A model generated the notes under the pieces. The model did no database searches and was not told the origin of the DNA. It saw only the letters and a program-made list of their open reading frames with translations. Below, one piece after another: positions 3,629 through 63,613 of a stretch of 64,000 nucleotides of DNA. The stretch is from contig SABY01000001.1 of the NCBI GenBank assembly GCA_009928785.1, positions 23,633 through 87,632 on the forward strand. The letters run 5' to 3'. Both the position numbers and the translations under genes were made by a program. This DNA is from Clostridia bacterium (GTDB lineage Bacteria > Bacteroidota > Bacteroidia > Bacteroidales > 4484-276). Position 1 is the first letter of the stretch, and the number at the start of each line of letters is the position of its first letter.

Positions 3629-3707
3629 AGTATAAAACCAAAACCCTCCGCGAATTCACACGAATTTGGCGAATTTTCATGATAAGGGAACTAGCGATAA
3701 TTCGTTT

Positions 3708-4090
3708 AATTGGCGGAAATTCGCGGACGGCTTGTTTATCCACGAATTCACCCGAATCAGTCGAATTCACACGAAAATTAAAAGACTGATTCCTTTTGAA
3801 GTTTCTATGTCAGCCTGATAGAAAGTCGCAGCAGGGGTCTGTTTTTTTATTTTTAAAATAATTAGCGGAAATTCGCGGACGGCTTGTTTATCCACGAATT
3901 CACGCGAATCAGGCGAATTCACACGAAAATTAAAAGACTGATTCCTTTTGACGTTTCTATGTCAGCCTGATAGAAAGTCGCGGCAGGGGTCTGTTTTTTT
4001 TATTTTTAAAATAATTAGCGAAAATTAGCTGAATTGGCGGAAATTCGCGGACGGCTTGTTTATCGAATTCACACGAAAATTAAAAGACAA
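3708..4090. repeat. Tandem repeat, 152-bp unit, about 2.4 copies (unit starts 3708, 3860, 4032)
   Basis: AAT(T/A)GCGGAAATTCGCGGACGG recurs at offsets of 152 and 172. The 172 offset reflects a 20-bp internal duplication. Each full unit has two GAATTCAC words, a hairpin TTTCTAT-N9-ATAGAAA (3802-3824 in copy 1) and a T-run. Confidence 0.85.
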
Positions 4091-12371: not shown

Positions 12372-12520
12372 AGACGCACGTCCCCCGCATGGGCGGGGCA
12401 GGCTGTGCGTCTCTACAATTGAAATCCCAAATCCCAAATCCCAAATCCCAAATCCCAAATCCCAAATCCCAAATCCAATTTCTTACTTCTAACTTCTATT
12501 CTCTTCCCTCTTAATTTCGT
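12372..12520. repeat. Composite intergenic element: nested GC hairpin, CAATTGAAATCC junction, (AAATCCC)x7 and an AT-rich tail
   Basis: Outer stem AGACGCAC/GTGCGTCT (12372-12379 / 12405-12412). Inner stem CCCCGC-ATGG-GCGGGG. Seven perfect heptads at 12422-12470 plus one imperfect. Tail TTCTTACTTCTAACTTCTATTCTCTTCCCTC. Confidence 0.9.
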
Positions 12521-16596: not shown

Positions 16597-17778
16597 TTGA
16601 GAGCCTACCCACGCATTACTGATCTCATAAATGATCTCACCGGAATCGACCTAAACCTGCCCGTTCAGACGTATGGCTTTTTTGTTGCACTGGCCTTCGT
16701 AGCAGGGGGGTTTATACTTTGGCTTGAGCTGGATCGGAAAGAAAAATCCGGCCAAATAAAGTTGAAAAACAGCCAGATGGTGACCAGGAAGAAGCCTGTG
16801 GCCGTCGAGTATCTCATTTCCGGAATCTTGTATTTTATCATCGGATTCAAGCTTACGGGAATCATTTTTAATTATGACGAGTTTACTGCCAATCCCCAGG
16901 GTTTTATATTTTCCGCCAAGGGATTTTATATTGGCGGTTTGGTGGTAATGGTGCCGGTATTGTGGATGATTTACCGGAAAGGGAAAAAAGCGGAAAGTGC
17001 AAACCCGGATGATGAAAAAGAATTGCGGGCGCGCGATCTTACACCGGCCATCGTTTTGGTAGCTGCTGTAGCCGGTATTGCCGGAGCCAAAATATTTGAT
17101 GTCGTCGAGCATCTCGATCAACTCTTCCGCGACCCGCTCGGCACACTATTTTCCTTTAGTGGATTAACTTTTTATGGAGGATTGCTCGTAGCGGCTTTTG
17201 CTGTAGGCATTTATGGCGAGCGCCACAATATCCGGTGGCCGGTAATGGCCGATGCGGTGGCTCCTGCTTTGATGCTTGCTTACGGCATAGGGCGCATTGG
17301 CTGCCAACTTTCCGGCGACGGCTGCTGGGGAATCGTGAATACGCTCACCAAACCAGCGTGGCTTACCTGGTTGCCCGATTTTATGTGGAGTTCCACCTTT
17401 CCGCACAACGTCATCAAAGAAGGCCTGCCACTGATGGATTGTAATGGAACCTATTGTTATGAATTGGGGCAGCCGGTTTTTCCTACTTCCCTTTACGAAA
17501 CGTTGATCGCTATTACTTTCTTTGGGGTGCTGTGGGCGCTCCGAAAACGTTTCACTGTTGCCGGAATGTTATTTTCGCTCTATCTGGTGCTAAATGGCAT
17601 AGCACGTTTTATTATCGAATTTGTGCGTGTTAATATTCGCTATCAGGTAGCTGGCTTCGAGGTGTCGCAGGCACAGATTATTGCTGTAATGCTGATTGTG
17701 GTGGGTGGCTTCGGTTTGTTTTATTTCAGATATTTGCATCCGATGGAAAGAAATCGCAAAAAATCAAATCCCAAATGA
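16597..17778 (+). CDS. lgt: Prolipoprotein diacylglyceryl transferase family protein
   Basis: Polytopic membrane protein. Lgt-like blocks [17 protein letters not shown] and [15 protein letters not shown] start with no nearby ATG. The last codons are built from the heptad-like AAATCNN repeat. Confidence 0.7.
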
Positions 17779-18000
17779 CAAAAGACAAATCACAAATAAA
17801 TCCCAAATTCCAAATTCTCAAAACCGTCGCTGGTTGAGCTTGTCGAAATCTGGTTATTAGGATTTATTTGGAACTTGTTTATTTGGAACTTGGAATTTCC
17901 CCAAAACTTGTTTATTTGGAACTTGGAATTTCCCCAAAACTTGTTTATTTGGAACTTGGAAATTCTCCAGGGCTTGTTATTTTGGAATCTGGGATTTAGC
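17764..18000. repeat. Composite repeat: period-7 tract (NNNNCAA), a central ~35 bp, then a 33-bp unit x~3.8; the arms form a long imperfect inverted repeat
   Basis: Unit CTTGTTTATTTGGAACTTGGAATTTCCCCAAAA starts at 17874, 17907, 17940 and 17973. Left AAATCCCAAATTCCAAA is nearly the reverse complement of right TTTTGGAATCTGGGATTT. Confidence 0.85.
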
Positions 18001-19280: not shown

Positions 19281-19287
19281 AAAACAA

Positions 19288-19371: not shown

Positions 19372-19479
19372 GAGATGAATTTAGAATTTTAGCACCAAAG
19401 GAGCGTTATTCCGATCGATCCCGGCAGGGCGACAGCAGTAAAATAGTTAAAAAAATAATCAATTTATTGTCATAAAAAA

Positions 19480-22785: not shown

Positions 22786-24090
22786 ATGAGTTCTTTTGAA
22801 ATTTGCGGAGGCAAAAGGCTCAGTGGACAGATTACACCCCAGGGTGCCAAAAACGAGGCGCTTCAGGTGATTTGTGCTGTTTTACTCACGAGCCAACCTG
22901 TTACCATTAGCAACATTCCGGAGATACGTGATGTGATAAAGCTAATCGACCTGCTGAAGTTGCTTGGCGTGGTGGTGGAAAAAACCGACGAGTCAACCTG
23001 GCGCTTTACCGCCTCAGATATTCATCTCGATATTTTGCTTACGGATAAGTTTCGTAAAAAAAGTGCGGAGTTGCGCGGCAGTATCATGATTATCGGTCCG
23101 CTGCTTGCACGCTTCGGTAAGGCATTTATTCCGCAGCCTGGTGGCGACAAAATAGGCCGTCGTCGGCTCGACACGCACTTTATTGGGTTACAAAAGCTGG
23201 GTGCCAAATTCGATTATAACTTTCAGAAGAACTACTACAGCGTGGTAGCGGAGCGTCTGGAAGGTACCTACATGCTCCTCGACGAAGCCTCCGTTACCGG
23301 CACCGCCAACGTACTCATGGCTGCCACCCTGGCGCATGGCACCACCACCATTTTCAACGCCGCCTGCGAGCCTTATGTGGTGCAGCTCTGTAAAATGCTC
23401 AACAGCATGGGTGCCCGAATCGAAGGTATTGGCAGCAATCTGCTGATTGTACACGGTGTAGAAGTTTTATCCGGCTGCAGCCATAAGCTCTTGCCCGACA
23501 TGATCGAGGTGGGTAGTTTTATCGGGCTGGCAGCACTCACCCAATCCAACATAAAAATTACCGGCGTCAACCCGGCCGATCTGGGCATCATCCCCGACGT
23601 TTTTGGAAGGCTCGGCATCCGTATGCAACTCAATGCCGACAGCATCGAAATTCCCGAACAGGAGAGTTACGAGATCGAAACTTTTATGGATGGCTCCATC
23701 ATGACCATCTCTGATGCTCCGTGGCCCGGCTTTACTCCCGACCTGATTAGTATTGCGCTGGTGGTGGCCATACAAGCCAAAGGCAGCGTGTTGATCCATC
23801 AGAAAATGTTTGAAAGCCGTCTGTTTTTCGTTGACAAACTCATCGACATGGGCGCTCGTATTATTTTGTGCGACCCGCACCGCGCCACCGTTATTGGCCT
23901 CGCCCGGCAATACAAGCTGCGCGCTATCCGTATGAGTTCGCCCGACATACGTGCTGGTGTAGCCTTGCTGCTCAGTGCGCTATCGGCTGAAGGCAAAAGC
24001 ATCATCGACAACATTGAGCAGATCGACCGCGGCTACCAAAACATCGATGGACGCCTGCGTGCAATTGGCGCGGAAATTGAAAGAATTTAG
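22786..24090 (+). CDS. murA: UDP-N-acetylglucosamine 1-carboxyvinyltransferase
   Basis: Full-length MurA pattern (GAKNEALQVICA...). The active-site loop PGGDKIGRRRLDTH has Asp (codon GAC at 23146-23148) where E. coli has Cys115. Confidence 0.95.
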   Translation: MSSFEICGGKRLSGQITPQGAKNEALQVICAVLLTSQPVTISNIPEIRDVIKLIDLLKLLGVVVEKTDESTWRFTASDIHLDILLTDKFRKKSAELRGSIMIIGPLLARFGKAFIPQPGGDKIGRRRLDTHFIGLQKLGAKFDYNFQKNYYSVVAERLEGTYMLLDEASVTGTANVLMAATLAHGTTTIFNAACEPYVVQLCKMLNSMGARIEGIGSNLLIVHGVEVLSGCSHKLLPDMIEVGSFIGLAALTQSNIKITGVNPADLGIIPDVFGRLGIRMQLNADSIEIPEQESYEIETFMDGSIMTISDAPWPGFTPDLISIALVVAIQAKGSVLIHQKMFESRLFFVDKLIDMGARIILCDPHRATVIGLARQYKLRAIRMSSPDIRAGVALLLSALSAEGKSIIDNIEQIDRGYQNIDGRLRAIGAEIERI

Positions 24091-24231
24091 AAGTTAGATG
24101 TCAGAAGTTAGATGTTAGAAATTAGATTTAGGATTTTTAATTAGGAAGTAGAGACGCACAGCCTGCCCCGCCCATGCGGGGGACGTGCGTAAATAATTAC
24201 GAATGAATATTGAATTTTGAATTTTGAATTG
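24090..24231. repeat. Composite element: degenerate 14-mers (GAAGTTAGATGTNA), the same GC hairpin as at 12372 (inverted), and (TGAATTT)x~4
   Basis: 24148-24190 is a perfect reverse-complement match to 12374-12416 (43 nt). 14-mers at 24090-24131; heptads at 24204-24231. Confidence 0.9.
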
Positions 24232-24306
24232 TAACCCCAACAGGACAGTAATAAAATAGGCAGGTGTTACAATGTTTTTGATGAATAAATTTTGAATTTT
24301 CTAATT

Positions 24307-25609: not shown

Positions 25610-26752
25610 ATGACAAAACGAGATTACTACGAAATACTGGAGATAACGCGCGATGCTAACGAAGGTGAGATAAAAAAGGCTTATCGCAAAATGGCTTTGC
25701 GCTATCATCCCGACAAAAACCCCGGCGACCACCAGTCAGAGGAGAAATTTAAAGAAGCTGCCGAAGCTTATGAAATTCTGAACGACAGTGATAAGCGCCA
25801 GCGCTACGACCGTTTTGGTCATGCTGGTGTGCGCGGTCAGGGAGGTGGCGGCTACGATATGTCGATGGAAGACATCTTCTCTAATTTCGGCGACATCTTT
25901 GGCAGCGCCTTTGGCGGTTTCAGCGGCGGTTTTGGCAACGGCAGCCGGCGGCGTCGTGTCAATCGGGGCAGCAATCTTAGGGTGCGCGTTAAGCTATCCC
26001 TCGAAGAGATTGCCAATGGTGTGAACAAAAAAATAAAAGTCAACAAATACAAAAAGTGTGAGGAGTGCTCCGGGAGTGGCGCCAAAGGCGGTAGCTCTTA
26101 CAGTACCTGCAGCACTTGCCATGGCTCCGGACAAGTGACGCGCGTCACGAATACTTTTCTGGGTCAGATGCAGACCGCCAGCACATGCCCGGCCTGTGGC
26201 GGCGAAGGCCAGGTAATTACCAGCAAATGTACCTCCTGCAATGGCGACGGTATTGTGCGCGGCGAAGAAGTTGTAAGTATCGACATCCCCGCCGGTGTGG
26301 CGCAGGACATGCAACTTTCGGTAAGTGGCAAGGGCAATGCCGGTGCGCGCGGCGGCATCAACGGCGACCTCATCGTGGTGATAGAAGAAGCCGAACACGA
26401 GTCGCTTATCCGCGACGGCGACAACCTCATTTACAATCATTTTATCACTTATGCCGAAGCTGCACTTGGGGCAACTGCCTATGTGCCCACCCTCGACGGA
26501 AAAGCTAAGTTGAGTATCGAAGCAGGCACCCACTCCGGAAAAGTACTCCGGCTTAAAGGAAAAGGAATCCCGCATCTGCAGCAATACGGCCGCGGCGATT
26601 TACTGGTAAACATCAGTGTGTGGACACCACAAAGCCTTAGCCGCGAAGAACGCGAGCTGCTGCAACAACTCGACAAATCCGACAACTTTAAACCCAATCC
26701 TTCCAAAAGCCAGCGCAACATTTTTAACAGGATGAAGGAATATTTTCAGTAA
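25610..26752 (+). CDS. dnaJ: Molecular chaperone DnaJ
   Basis: J-domain HPD (RYHPDKNP), a G/F-rich region and four CxxCxGxG repeats (CEECSGSG, CSTCHGSG, CPACGGEG, CTSCNGDG). Confidence 0.95.
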   Translation: MTKRDYYEILEITRDANEGEIKKAYRKMALRYHPDKNPGDHQSEEKFKEAAEAYEILNDSDKRQRYDRFGHAGVRGQGGGGYDMSMEDIFSNFGDIFGSAFGGFSGGFGNGSRRRRVNRGSNLRVRVKLSLEEIANGVNKKIKVNKYKKCEECSGSGAKGGSSYSTCSTCHGSGQVTRVTNTFLGQMQTASTCPACGGEGQVITSKCTSCNGDGIVRGEEVVSIDIPAGVAQDMQLSVSGKGNAGARGGINGDLIVVIEEAEHESLIRDGDNLIYNHFITYAEAALGATAYVPTLDGKAKLSIEAGTHSGKVLRLKGKGIPHLQQYGRGDLLVNISVWTPQSLSREERELLQQLDKSDNFKPNPSKSQRNIFNRMKEYFQ

Positions 26753-27099
26753 TGGCTAAAAAAAATAAGAATATCACCGGCGATGTTGTTTACTCCACCA
26801 ATCCCGACTTTTCGTTTGAATACCGTGAGGAGGTGCAGCAGGAAACGCTCCCCCCGGCACAGCAAAAGCTAAAAGTGTGGCTCGATCGCAAAATGCGCAA
26901 AGGCAAGATGGTAACATTGGTGAAGGGTTTTGTGGGGACAACCGATGATATGGAATCATTGGCAAAACTCCTCAAGACGCGCTGTGGCACTGGTGGCTCC
27001 GCCAAAGACGGCGAAATAATTATACAAGGTGATGTGCGCGAAAAGGTGTTGACAATCCTGAAAAATGAAGGCTACAAAGCAATTGCCGCAGGAGGATAA
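26752..27099 (+). CDS. SUI1/YciH family translation initiation factor-like protein
   Basis: 115 aa. KGKMVTLVKGF...LKTRCGTGGSAKDGEIIIQGD pattern. The start overlaps the dnaJ stop (TAATG). Confidence 0.85.
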   Translation: MAKKNKNITGDVVYSTNPDFSFEYREEVQQETLPPAQQKLKVWLDRKMRKGKMVTLVKGFVGTTDDMESLAKLLKTRCGTGGSAKDGEIIIQGDVREKVLTILKNEGYKAIAAGG

Positions 27100-27122
27100 A
27101 AGAGGAGTCATGTAGTGATGAA

Positions 27123-27275
27123 AGACCAAACCCTTCGGAGGACGTGTGTCTGGAAATGCAATTGAAATCCGAATACCGAATACCGAATACCGAATACTGA
27201 ATACCGAATACCGAATACCGAATAACGAATACCGAATAACGGATAACGAATAACGAATAACGGATAACGAATTTT
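27123..27275. repeat. Composite element: short hairpin region, CAATTGAAATCC junction and 15 heptads (GAATACC grading to GAATAAC/GGATAAC)
   Basis: AGACCAAACCCTTCGGAGGACGTGTGTCT at 27123-27151. The junction at 27159-27170 is identical to 12416-12427. Heptads counted from 27171 to 27275. Confidence 0.9.
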
Positions 27276-27337
27276 AGCCCCAACGAGCCGACATCAAAGC
27301 CAAACCAACGACAATTTGTTAACCCGACAACATTACT

Positions 27338-27910
27338 ATGGATAACGAAGAAATTTTAAAAGAACCTGTTTACTCGCCTTTTGTACTGGAGTTTCTGGCC
27401 GTGGCGCAGAAGTATTGCCTCTTTATCGAAGACATCGACAAATACAATACTACCGAAATTTTCGACTATATGCACAAAGCATTGCCGCTCCTTTATGTGC
27501 GCGGATCGGTATTACCGGAAGTGGCTCCCGACGACTACGAAGCCAACGAAAAATATGTGACCGAAGAACAATGGCAAAACATCTTTAACGCTTTGCGCGA
27601 AAAGCTGGGAAGCAACGACGAATATTGGTTTAACGAAAACGACAACCCCCTCAACGAATTGATAAAAGGCAGCCTTGCTGATGGATTTACGGATATCTAT
27701 CAGGACATGAAGGACTTCGTGTTGCTGTTTCAAAAACCACTACGCGATGCTAAAAAGGTGGCGGTGTGGGAGATGCGTGAGCTTTTTCAGGCTCATTGGG
27801 GCTTTAGGATTGTAAACTTGCTCAAGGTGCTGCATTATCATATCTATAGCGAAAACCGCCCCCGGCACCTGGCAGATGCTGATGATGTTTCATTGCGCGA
27901 AAGCGAATAA
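27338..27910 (+). CDS. DUF5063-like protein
   Basis: 190 aa; the N-terminal FVLEFLAVAQKYCLFIED block fits my recollection of DUF5063. Weak assignment. Confidence 0.5.
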   Translation: MDNEEILKEPVYSPFVLEFLAVAQKYCLFIEDIDKYNTTEIFDYMHKALPLLYVRGSVLPEVAPDDYEANEKYVTEEQWQNIFNALREKLGSNDEYWFNENDNPLNELIKGSLADGFTDIYQDMKDFVLLFQKPLRDAKKVAVWEMRELFQAHWGFRIVNLLKVLHYHIYSENRPRHLADADDVSLRESE

Positions 27911-27996
27911 GAAATAATCTCCTTTGATAAACCTCAGTGGCGAATCTCCCTCCCGACTTACATTTCTCAACAAGCCCTTACCTATAAAGGCCTCTA

Positions 27997-28140
27997 TTCT
28001 AAATAAGTATTTAGCTACCTAATTGATTGTTAATACATTATTTTAAAATATCTCCGACTTTCTAAATAAGTCATCATCAGGCTGTAATATAGCTTGGGAA
28101 TGATATTTGGGTAATTTTGCAATCTATATTTATTCTAAAT
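27997..28140 (+). promoter_or_regulatory. Three TTCTAAAT boxes upstream of feoAB; the first sits in a perfect palindrome CTAAATA-AG-TATTTAG (27999-28014). Candidate operator.
   Basis: Boxes at about 27997, 28070 and 28133; palindrome read directly. Function is not established. Confidence 0.25.
28112..28119 (+). promoter_or_regulatory. -7 promoter box TAATTTTG upstream of feoAB
   Basis: Exact TAnnTTTG match 46 nt upstream of the ATG at 28165. Confidence 0.4.
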
Positions 28141-39643: not shown

Positions 39644-41920
39644 ATGCTTTTCGATCTCGATCTAATCCAAAACGTTTACAATAAATTTCCTGCAAGAATC
39701 CAAAAGGCGCGTCAGCTTTTAAAGCGTCCGCTTACGCTCACCGAAAAAATCCTCTATGCCCATTTGTGGGATGAGGTGGGAAAAGAATATAACCGTGGCG
39801 CCGACTATGTGGATTTTGCCCCCGACCGCGTGGCCATGCAAGATGCTACCGCCCAGATGGCGCTGCTTCAATTTATGCAGGCCGGGCGCGACAAAGTGGC
39901 GGTGCCAAGCACGGTGCATTGCGATCACCTGATACAGGCGCGCGTGGGAGCCAAAGAAGATTTGAAGGTTGCTAAAGATAACAACCGGGAGGTTTTTGAT
40001 TTTCTTTCGTCGATATCCAATAAATATGGTATTGGTTTCTGGAAGCCGGGTGCCGGCATCATCCATCAGGTGGTGCTCGAAAACTATGCTTTTCCCGGCG
40101 GGATGATGATAGGAACCGATTCGCACACCGTGAATGCCGGCGGGCTTGGCATGATAGCCATTGGTGTAGGCGGCGCCGATGCTGTGGATGTAATGGCCGG
40201 CATGCCCTGGGAGCTGAAGATGCCGCGCATCATCGGTGTAAAATTAACGGGTAAACTCAGCGGATGGACATCCTCCAAAGACGTCATTCTGAAAGTTGCT
40301 GGTATCCTTACGGTAAAAGGCGGAACAGGTGCTATTGTTGAATATTTTGGCCCTGGCGCCGAGCATCTGAGCTGCACAGGCAAGGGCACGATATGTAATA
40401 TGGGCGCCGAGATTGGAGCAACCACTTCTTTATTCGGCTACGACCGGCGTATGTCGGATTACCTGCGTGCTACCGGACGTGCTCTGGTGGCCGACGCTGC
40501 CGATAAAATTGCCGGACATCTAATCGGTGATGAAGAAGTTTATAACGATCCCGGAGAATATTTCGATCAGGTTATCGAAATTGATCTTTCCCAACTGGAG
40601 CCGCACATCAACGGGCCTTTTACCCCGGATTTGGCCACGCCGGTATCGGAATTTGCGCAGGCAGCCCGCGACAACAACTGGCCACTGACGCTGGAGGTAG
40701 GCTTAATTGGTTCCTGTACCAATTCATCTTACGAAGACATTACCCGTGCTGCTTCAGTGGCGCAGCAGGCGCTCGACAACGATCTGGAAGTGAAATCGGA
40801 ATATACCGTTACGCCCGGTTCCGAGCAGGTGCGGTTTACAGTAGAACGCGACGGCTACCTCGACATCTTCGAAAAAATTGGCGGCGTGGTGCTGGCCAAT
40901 GCATGTGGCCCCTGCATCGGACAATGGGCACGCCACAATGCCGACAAGAAAGAGAAAAACTCTATCATGACGTCGTTCAATCGCAACTTTGCCAAACGCA
41001 ACGACGGCAACCCCAACACGCACGGTTTTGTGGCTTCGCCCGAAATTGTAACGGCTTTTGCCATTGCCGGCACCCTGGAGTTTAATCCGCTCACCGACAG
41101 CCTTATTAATAAAAAAGGAGAAAAAATAAAACTGAAAGAACCACAGGGAATCGAACTGCCTATTAAAGGTTTTGCTGTGGAAGACAATGGCTACCAGGAA
41201 CCTGCTCGCGATGGCAGCAACATCAGCGTTGAGGTGGCTCCCGACTCCGACCGTTTGCAGTTGCTTGCGCCTTTTGCACCCTGGGAAGGTCACGACATTA
41301 AAGGTCTAAGATTATTAATAAAAGCCAAAGGCAAATGTACCACCGACCACATTTCGATGGCCGGCCCCTGGCTGCGCTACCGTGGTCACCTGGATAATAT
41401 TTCCAACAACCTGCTTATTGGCGCCGAAAATGCCTTTACCGGAAAAACCAATCTTATCAAAAACCAGCTAAACGGTGCATATGATGCAGTGCCGGCGGTG
41501 GCAAGAGCTTACAAAGCGCAAGGCATTGGAACCATTGTGGTGGGCGACGAAAATTATGGCGAAGGCTCCTCACGCGAACATGCCGCTATGGAGCCGCGTC
41601 ATCTGGGCGTTAGAGCTGTGGTGGTGCGTAGTTTTGCACGCATACACGAAACCAACCTAAAAAAGCAAGGGATGCTCGCGCTTACCTTTGCCGACAAAAC
41701 CGATTACGGTAAAATTATGGAAGACGATACTTTCGACATCACAGGTCTCGAAACCTTTGAGCAAGGCCGTCCGCTGCAACTCATCGTTCACCACTTCGAC
41801 GGCACCACCAACAAAATGGAGATGCTGCACACCTATAGTCCGGTACAAATAGAATGGTTTAAAGCCGGCTCGGCGCTCAACCTTATCAAAAAGCAGAATG
41901 TGTTGACGGGGAGGAAGTAG
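39644..41920 (+). CDS. acnA: Aconitate hydratase (about 750-aa type)
   Basis: Aconitase family blocks including the Fe-S ligand contexts GSCTNSS and [10 protein letters not shown], plus the swivel domain. The stop TAG (41918-41920) lies inside the first GGAAGTA heptads. Confidence 0.9.
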
Positions 41921-42223
41921 GAAGTAGGAAGTAGGAAGTAGGAAGTAGGTAGCAGGAAGTAGGTAGTGGTTAGAACAAAGAAATTAGAATTTACCGTTGA
42001 GATGCCCGATCGTGTTCGTTTAATATTGTTGATGAATGAAACCTCTGCAGGCTTCCTGTCAATAATTCCCGGATTCATCAGGGATAGATGGAAGAAGAGC
42101 CAACTGCGAACTGCGAACTGTGTACTGTGGACTGTGGACTGTGAGCTGCCAACTGCGAACTGAGAACTGTGAGCTGCCAACTGAGAACTGCGAACTGTGG
42201 ACTGCGAGCTGCCAACTGCAACT
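41913..42223. repeat. Composite element: (GGAAGTA)x~8, a ~130-bp core, then 17+ heptads of the form GNNNACT
   Basis: Left array 41913-41968. Right array 42099-42223 (GCCAACT, GCGAACT, GTGGACT, GTGAGCT...), with a higher-order ~28-bp pattern. Confidence 0.9.
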
Positions 42224-44946: not shown

Positions 44947-45083
44947 AAACAAACAAACACCGAACACCAAACAACAAACACCAAGCAACAAACTTGAGCG
45001 TAGCTGCCTGCCCCGACCCATCGGGGAAATCCCGAGAGCTTTGCGATTCGGGAAACAAACAACGAACAACAAACAACGAACAG
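44947..45083. repeat. Composite element: (CAAACAC/CAAACAA)x~7, two GC hairpins, then (AAACAAC/AACGAAC)x~4
   Basis: Hairpins CCCCGA-CCCA-TCGGGG (45011-45026) and CCCGA-N12-TCGGG (45031-45052). Heptad tracts at 44947-44993 and 45053-45083. Confidence 0.85.
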
Positions 45084-47284: not shown

Positions 47285-47303
47285 TGAAGTCGGCAAACAA
47301 GAT

Positions 47304-47689
47304 TAACCTTTCTATCTCCTCCTTCATCGGACCGTAGAAAGTTGCTACCCCCCCCACAGACTTTCGAGCGTCCGAAGGACCTCGAAACGTCAACAAACGA
47401 AACTAACCTTTCTATCTCCTCCTTCATCGGACCGTAGAAAGTTGCTACCCCCCCCACAGACTTTCGAGCGTCCGAAGAACCTCGAAACGTCAACGAACGA
47501 ACCTAACCTTTTCTATCTCCTCCTTCATCGGACGATAGAAAGTTGCTACCCCCCCACAGACTTTCGAGCGTCCGAAGGGACCTCGAAACGTCAAACAAAC
47601 AACAAACAACAAACAACAAACAACAAACAACGAACAACAAACAACGAACAACAAACAACAAACAACGAACAACGAACAACAAACAACGA
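47304..47689. repeat. Three tandem copies of an exactly 100-bp unit (starts 47304, 47404, 47504) running into ~14 heptads (AACAAAC/AACGAAC)
   Basis: Copies 1 and 2 differ at 3 positions. Each unit has hairpin A (CTTTCTA...TAGAAAG, 47308-47341), a C7-8 run and hairpin B (TTTCGAG-C-GTCC-GAA-GGAC-CTCGAAA, 47362-47387). The heptad tract spans about 47593-47689. Confidence 0.9.
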
Positions 47690-63444: not shown

Positions 63445-63613
63445 TATATCAGTTATTATTTATTAATCCGACTCATCTGGCTTTTCGGATTCGCCCCGTT
63501 TTTTTTATTGGTATCTGGATTCCAAAATTGATCTGAAATGGTATTTATGTTTTTATCATCGTTTACTTTTGGTGTATTAATTTTGAAAAGCTAAAACGAC
63601 TTATTGCAATACG

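Follow-up and report, generated by a model that had tools for sequence, protein, structure and literature searches.

A heptanucleotide repeat array beside a decayed REP-like palindrome: an ordinary microsatellite without support for polar addition of units

The spacer between a SUI1-type gene and a DUF5063 gene, both on the plus strand of the 64,000-nt stretch of DNA analysed here (the window), contains a tandem array of seven-nucleotide units, locus 5, in which the units at one end differ from those at the other. This raises the question of whether the order of the units records growth from one end, as proposed in the initial annotation, which placed the addition of new units next to a hairpin, or whether it arose in another way. 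The grpE and dnaJ genes lie upstream of the spacer and feoB downstream, the SUI1 gene closing a grpE-dnaJ-SUI1 run in the ORF list, with the same order in Logan and ENA contigs. Contigs reached through a protein homolog search showed that DUF5063 homologs of 84-89% identity keep the same neighbours, with the exception of L067. The array ends 63 nt before the DUF5063 start codon. A minus-strand ORF running across it, suspected from the start to be spurious, matched no Pfam family and is an artefact, opened by the lack of stop codons on the reverse strand of the array (see table).

Table. Features of the locus-5 region, paralogous copies in the window and orthologous spacers in related species
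Feature	Position	Strand	Description
SUI1/YciH-type translation factor gene	26752..27099	+	115 aa; Pfam PF01253, E 3.6e-19
Spurious ORF	27020..27283	-	FVIRYS(L/V) repeats; overlaps SUI1 3' end
SUI1-DUF5063 spacer	27097-27337		between two + strand genes
Decayed relic of GTAG-tagged REP-like palindrome (family 1)	27112..27151	+	GTAGTGATGAAAGACC...GGAGGACGTGTGTCT
Junction GGAAATGCAATTGAAATCC	27152..27170	+	holds 12-mer CAATTGAAATCC and degenerate first heptad GAAATCC
Proximal block, 7 units	27171..27219	+	GAATACC x6, GAATACT x1
Distal block, 7 units	27220..27268	+	GAATAAC x4, GGATAAC x2, one interleaved GAATACC
Right-end motif GAATTTTAGCCCCAACG	27269..27285	+	first 7 bases are the 15th unit
DUF5063 protein gene	27338..27910	+	190 aa; Pfam PF16702, E 3.8e-34
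Paralogous copy	12372..12476	+	intact family-1 hairpin (12372-12416), CAATTGAAATCC junction, AAATCCC x8
Paralogous copy	24082..24242	+	AGAAGTT/AGATGTY heptads, intact family-1 hairpin (24148-24190), heptads, right-end motif
Orthologous spacer, 89% type (L059-type), identical in six samples			hairpin intact, z -3.4; 3 heptads: GAATGAC GATTTAC GATTTTC
Orthologous spacer, 86% type (L065/L066)			hairpin truncated to outer stem, z -4.6, then GGAAATCC; 16 heterogeneous heptads
Orthologous spacer, 84% type			no hairpin; 5 unrelated heptads: GGCAGCC, GGCAGTT, ...
Orthologous spacer, 88% type, different upstream gene			no hairpin; GGCGCAT heptads

The array itself is real. TRF delimited it at 27169-27272 with a period of 7, 14.9 copies, 90% matches, 0% indels and a score of 145. 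Fifteen heptads had been claimed for 27171-27275; fourteen are full units (27171-27268), but the fifteenth, GAATTTT (27269-27275), agrees with the others at just 4 of 7 positions and is part of the conserved right-end motif. From 27171 the units read GAATACC x3, GAATACT and GAATACC x3, followed by GAATAAC, GAATACC, GAATAAC, GGATAAC, GAATAAC x2 and GGATAAC. Seven of the eight GAATACC-type units are contiguous at the junction side, the eighth being interleaved in the distal block. The order of the variants departs from randomness when set against free permutation (rank-sum 2/3003, p=0.0007), and the positional trend is significant (Spearman rho 0.71, p=0.004). To this extent the gradient described earlier, from GAATACC through GAATAAC to GGATAAC, was confirmed, but its form was not: the units make up two blocks whose members alternate at the boundary (ACC AAC ACC AAC), GGATAAC occupying positions 11 and 14, and not three successive steps. 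Higher-order periods of 14, 21 and 28 were also reported by TRF. The conserved junction proposed before was recovered: the window has two exact copies of the 12-mer CAATTGAAATCC, at 12416 and 27159, and both stand where a heptad array begins; GTCTGGAAAT of the junction is common to locus 5 and the ortholog L065. Such arrays exceed chance, seven period-7 arrays with a TRF score of at least 50 being found in the window against none in 20 first-order Markov random windows. Besides those seven, the window has arrays at multiples of 7.

The hairpin thought to stand beside the array does not fold. Folding of 27100-27172, which spans the putative hairpin at 27123-27152, gave z = -0.01 against shuffled sequences; among the other family-1 copies, z was -5.2 for 12372-12416 and -2.9 for 24148-24190, and the values for L059 and L065 are listed in the table. 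Because of this failure to fold, the locus-5 palindrome is regarded as a relic. It aligns with the copies GTAGAGACGCACAGCC...GGGGGACGTGCGTCT at 24148, at 12416 (reverse complement) and in the orthologous spacers L059 and L065, and is oriented opposite to the 12372-12416 copy. Its 5' arm has been mutated from GTAGAGACGCACAGCC to GTAGTGATGAAAGACC, a change that abolishes pairing with GGACGTGTGTCT. The palindrome is about 40 nt long, with an unpaired GTAG right before the stem, GTAG being followed by AGACGCAC...GTGCGTCT, and is represented at 12372-12416 (+), 24148-24190 (-) and in the relic. GTAG stands directly 5' of AGACGCAC in the window copies at 24148, 12416 (reverse complement) and 27112 and in L059, L065, L078 and L082; the copy in L079 has TTAG in its place. 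The three window copies are all intergenic, and further loci were found in relatives. Positions 12374-12416 and 24148-24190 are inverted copies of each other, identical at 43 of 43 positions.

Homology extends from the palindrome into its arms. The arm at 12372-12416 is homologous to that of the 24148 copy, and the junction-proximal AAATCC is the unit expanded in the arms at 12374 and 24148, with 8 units in the former vs about 2 in the latter. On the side corresponding to locus 5, five copies in the window and in other species carry (G/T)GAAAT followed by NACGA(A/T)T heptads. Such heptads follow the family-1 hairpin in L059, L065, L078 and at 24191 in the window, where the run after the 24148-24190 hairpin reads TACGAAT GAATATT GAATTTT x2. 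No array accompanies the hairpin in L079 or L082.

Attempts to find the element more widely gave few sequences. A metagenome scan with the locus-specific left flank returned 0 matches, and one with the family-1 stem returned 8 loci, of which 4 were relevant, not enough to test polarity across the genome. A scan with the hairpin core of a genome collection of species representatives, to which the genome of the window does not belong, gave 54 matches, mostly chance matches in GC-rich genomes; related family-2 elements were seen solely in the Bacteroidales MAG JAAYIU01. Rfam had no match on the hairpins or arrays, either at the gathering threshold or at E<=1, and a Pfam survey of the approximately 46 window ORFs revealed no RAYT, transposase, reverse transcriptase or cas gene.

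GTAG-tagged REPs and BIMEs, associated with RAYT transposases, are recognised by their GTAG tag (PMC3733652, PMC3479197), and GTAG-type REPs are not listed for Bacteroidetes in the 2013 survey (PMC3733652). The element described here resembles them in being a GC-rich imperfect palindrome, a stable stem-loop in the intact copies, in its terminal unpaired GTAG, and in having, within the window, three extragenic copies in both orientations. It differs in that the locus-5 copy is decayed, no RAYT gene lies within the window and the arms consist of heptads. We know of no REPs with heptad-repeat arms. These apparent REP-like GTAG palindromes with heptad-repeat arms in Bacteroidales are the sole mildly novel thread of the analysis, and it remains descriptive.

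Orthologous spacers were then compared between species. The GAATACC unit is absent from L059 and L065. In the 86% type the heptads are TACGATT, GACGATT, GACGAAT and AACGATT, with higher-order duplications of 14 and 21 nt. The spacers without a hairpin, those of L068 and L067, carry unrelated heptads. If the locus-5 units are rotated, the distal ones read AACGAAT and fit the canonical NACGAAT, and the proximal ones read ACCGAAT. The distal units are of the ancestral type, as the NACGAAT heptads of the relatives support. The earlier view that older units lie distally is upheld in this respect, but "diverged" would be the wrong word for them. ACCGAAT is absent from the outgroups, which supports it as a derived A>C variant found only in the window lineage and expanded there. 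Taken together, the hairpins and heptads of the orthologous spacers indicate that the element was inserted in an ancestor and that the content of the array was turned over in place.

The same spacers bear on whether the array, instead of growing in place, may have come in fully formed as a repeat carried inside a mobile MITE-like element. Its bounds are conserved: to the left lie the relic hairpin and the junction, to the right GAATTTTAGCMCCAAMG, which two other arrays have as well. A MITE with an internal minisatellite is known from Porphyromonas gingivalis (PMC4596501). That MITE resembles the present element as a small mobile element of the Bacteroidota with a variable tandem repeat; it differs in that its minisatellite has a longer unit and lies within defined terminal inverted repeats, the unit here being 7 nt and the element having no defined ends. 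Neither terminal inverted repeats nor target duplications were defined at locus 5, and the orthologous spacers share the insertion but hold 3, 15 and 16 units of different composition. Furthermore, two strains that are 98% identical differ in the array, so most of its content arose after insertion. We consider import of a finished array most improbable.

The strain comparison was made on assembled contigs. A Logan contig from SRR8327729 was identical to the window over the whole spacer. Contigs from ERR15804815 and ERR15804817, 98% identical to the window overall (L001/L004), matched it without change over a left flank of 74 nt, from the stop codon through the relic and the junction. After this flank the units of the 98% strain run ACC ACC AAC gAAC AAC gAAC GGCTAAC and, from unit 8 on, AAC GATTAAC GAATTCC AAC AAC AAC AAC G..., at which point the contig stops. 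A repeat could be threaded wrongly in Logan contigs, which are assembled from k-mers, though the two samples agree. Nine of the 14 units differ from those in the window, spread from unit 3 to unit 14, and the junction block has 2 GAATACC units vs 7 in the window. The two alleles can be reconciled only if the proximal block changed, a single unit was inserted or deleted internally and 8 or more units were gained or lost distally. Two or more non-proximal events are required, the sister contig ending inside the array without a distal anchor. The most diverged units of the sister allele lie mid-array, a pure run of AAC x4 is found far from the junction, and the mismatch trend is reversed (centre of mass 0.38 vs 0.78). 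Exact-protein look-ups with DUF5063, DUF2061 and AsnC gave no match, and the right end of the sister allele was not recovered. The short degenerate arrays at 24082 and 24204 were unchanged in copy number in the same strain; instability of long pure arrays and stability of short impure ones is typical SSR behaviour. In another strain, about 96.6% identical, the 42102 array differed in copy number at its hairpin-distal end, and at the distal end of the 47594 array one of about 4 visible units differed by A/G.

The window contains about 11 period-7 arrays with different units. Few long spacers between 12 and 48 kb lack one, and several of the arrays adjoin GC-rich palindromes. Their units include AAATCCC, AGAAGTT(AGAGGGG), TGAATTT, GAATACC, AGGAAGT, AACTGCG and AACAAAC. 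A gradient had been expected at other arrays if growth were polar. Within TRF boundaries eight arrays were informative, and locus 5 alone among them had a significant positional trend. Units were purest near the hairpin in three arrays (27171, 47594 and 45054); the opposite was seen at 44954 and 24204, where the units beside the hairpin are the most variant, and arguably at 41912; the arrays at 24082 and 42102 were neutral. In several arrays (12422, 27171 and 47594) the purest run abuts the hairpin or its relic. No stable hairpin stands beside the long arrays at 19287, 41912 and 42102 (z +0.4 and +0.9).

A different kind of asymmetry was seen with respect to the genes. Variant units lean to the plus-strand 3' side, towards the downstream plus-strand gene, in 5 of the 8 informative arrays, a small sample in which the lean is not significant. 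The tendency was noted with reference to the arrays at 12422, 27171, 41912, 44954, 45054 and 47594, and all window arrays stand in a plus-strand context, which leaves strand, gene and hairpin effects confounded. A general rule that arrays are pure at the plus-strand 5' end was rejected, as it applied to 5 of 8 arrays (TRF boundaries) and was not significant. Some positional bias, for instance from fork stalling at palindromes or from constraint on the promoter side, is conceivable, and the expansion of the junction-proximal AAATCC unit in the paralogous arms speaks for a local bias of some sort.

These comparisons speak against polar, hairpin-anchored addition, by which units would be added as at a CRISPR leader and the distal ones would be the oldest and most decayed. 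Such growth would account for the derived ACC block at the junction end with ancestral-type units distal to it, for the pure runs beside strong hairpins at 12422 and 47594, and for the expansion of the junction-proximal AAATCC in the paralogous arms. However, both strains have the same non-folding relic and yet their arrays differ, and the sister allele diverged in its middle. The interleaved ACC and AAC units and the positions of GGATAAC require internal multi-unit events, and at 42102 it is the hairpin-distal end at which copy number changes. The ortholog with the intact hairpin has the shortest array (3 units), two hairpin copies lack an array, three long arrays lack a stable hairpin, and two arrays are most variant where they meet one. 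No candidate enzyme was found in the window. The initial annotation had named two observations that would count against its own proposal, the absence of a positional gradient at other arrays and changes scattered along the array between strains, and both were largely made. Polar addition at the hairpin-proximal end must be regarded as very unlikely. Had ordered growth of a spacer-less array from a hairpin held, it would have implied an unknown templated DNA-addition machinery.

It is likely, instead, that locus 5 is a heptanucleotide "long SSR" which grew in place in the arm of a decayed GTAG-tagged REP-like element. The arm of this element family is naturally made of NACGA(A/T)T heptad proto-repeats. 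Misaligned strands in replication or repair would lengthen or shorten an array by one to three units (7, 14 or 21 nt), so that a new variant would be copied to its neighbours and form blocks. In the window lineage the A>C point variant would have been amplified locally in this manner, and the "gradient" would reflect the genealogy of two blocks instead of the order in which units were added. Slippage is a process that we infer from the sequences and did not observe. In a simulation of non-polar slippage, illustrative only as its parameters were arbitrary, 4 or fewer runs were seen in 27% of arrays with two (major) variants, and a block structure is therefore expected by itself. A stronger reading, in which the REP-like GTAG palindromes destabilise their own heptad arms, for example by replication stalling, and each insertion seeds a hypervariable array expanding next to the palindrome, is rather unlikely. 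If it were true, palindrome-seeded arrays would give rise to variable intergenic spacers upstream of promoters throughout the genome.

The position of the arrays relative to genes could point to a function. The window arrays end 6-210 nt upstream of plus-strand start codons and are A-rich in the sense of the gene, the unit families GAATAnn, AACTGnG and NACGATT recur in distant Bacteroidota loci, and copy number varies between strains. The heptads of locus 5, upstream of the DUF5063 promoter, might serve as binding sites or form a tunable spacer that acts as a phase-variation-like rheostat, with the number of units under selection. Against this, the unit sequence is not conserved in species at 84-89% protein identity, where the array can be nearly absent, and the genes on both sides are ordinary housekeeping genes and not of the surface or contingency type. 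The dispersed element arm accounts for the recurrence of the unit families. A selected regulatory array is unlikely in our view; most probably the array is a neutral hypervariable spacer upstream of the putative DUF5063 promoter. The last approximately 130 nt of the next spacer, between DUF5063 and feoB (about 27990-28116), are strongly conserved in L059, L065, L067 and L068, relatives with merely 84-89% protein identity, in contrast to the array-bearing spacer upstream of it, which is unconserved. This conserved end includes GGGTAATTTTGCAAT, which resembles the Bacteroidetes TAnnTTTG -7 box, and is probably the feoB promoter/operator.

Seen beside known repeats, locus 5 is a real but ordinary heptanucleotide microsatellite of a kind long known in bacteria, and polar addition is not supported. 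In many bacteria heptanucleotide SSRs are the commonest class of long SSRs (units of 5-11 nt), and their origin is ascribed to slippage of the polymerase, according to the summary of Mrazek, Guo & Shah (2007) given in PMC4679880. The same article describes mixed heptamer assemblages in Bacteroidetes intergenic regions that close relatives lack in the same spacer, and direct repeats of TAACTGA and other heptamers in Beggiatoaceae, Cyanobacteria and Bacteroidetes (MacGregor 2015, PMC4679880). The locus-5 units GAATACC, GAATAAC and GGATAAC are not TAACTGA, which solely the 42102 array (AACTGNG) resembles. Locus 5 agrees with the long SSRs, as far as they are summarised there, in its intergenic head-to-tail units of 7 nt, longer than chance, in the many arrays per genome sharing one period with different units, and in strain variation beside conserved flanks; unlike those so summarised, many arrays here lie in the arms of REP-like palindromes and have common short bounding motifs. 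An association of long SSRs with palindromes is, to our knowledge, not described in the Mrazek survey. The cyanobacterial STRR sequences, said to have been reported by Mazel et al. in 1990, are reportedly tandem heptanucleotides dispersed in non-coding DNA. They belong to a different phylum, have different units and form genome-wide families of few fixed units, in contrast to the locus-specific units found here. Locus 5 is like CRISPR in that its tandem units adjoin a conserved "leader-like" junction and the terminal unit is degenerate. Unlike CRISPR repeats, the locus-5 units abut without spacers and are 7 nt long, no cas genes are present among the window ORFs, and change between the alleles, as far as the sister allele is assembled, does not appear to be confined to the leader end.

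The arrays also have practical consequences. They break short-read assemblies: three of four contigs with the SUI1 gene stop at or inside the spacer, and the Logan contigs L001, L002, L004, L083 and L084 repeatedly end at or in heptad-array spacers. They create false ORFs, and they could serve as strain-typing markers.

Several other features of the repeats were recorded. The motif GAATTTTAGCMCCAAMG closes three heptad arrays on the plus strand (those at 19287, 24204 and 27171), at 19384-19400 (0 mismatches), 24226-24242 (3 mismatches) and 27269-27285 (0 mismatches). A resemblance of AAATCCC to plant telomeres was rejected by inspection, as it is not a rotation of CCCTAAA. The end of the aconitase gene lies within the AGGAAGT array (41912-41920), so that its final two codons and its stop codon (AGG AAG TAG) come from the repeat. 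A second hairpin element at 44947-45082 comprises the core GCCTGCCCCGACCCATCGGGG and AAATCCCGAGAGC...GCGATTCGGGA, with AACRAAC heptads on both sides. This element with its flanking AACRAAC is also present in the Bacteroidales MAG JAAYIU01 (L020, L050, L057), and its 21-nt core in Lentimicrobiaceae, Chitinophagaceae, Saprospiraceae and Cyclobacteriaceae MAGs. At 47289-47687 lie three tandem copies of a 100-nt unit, each with two strong hairpins (z -4.9) and set apart from the next by two AACRAAC heptads; the 13-unit AACAAAC array that follows opens spurious ORFs on both strands. Between the Ppnp gene and a Fic-domain gene, at 3707-4051, a 152-nt unit occurs 2.1 times at 95% identity and contains internal 10-nt subrepeats (AATTCGCGGA, CACGAATTCA). 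Degenerate AAATCCC-like heptads at 17765-17997 are followed by 3.5 copies of a 33-nt repeat (AACTTGTTTATTTGGAACTTGGAATTTCCCCAA); the two parts are partly inverted-complementary (73%), with the motif TGAGCTTGTCGAA, tandem in L020, between them. Finally, a DUF805 RNA motif (Rfam RF03081) was identified at 63462-63530 on the minus strand with 68.5 bits, above the gathering score.
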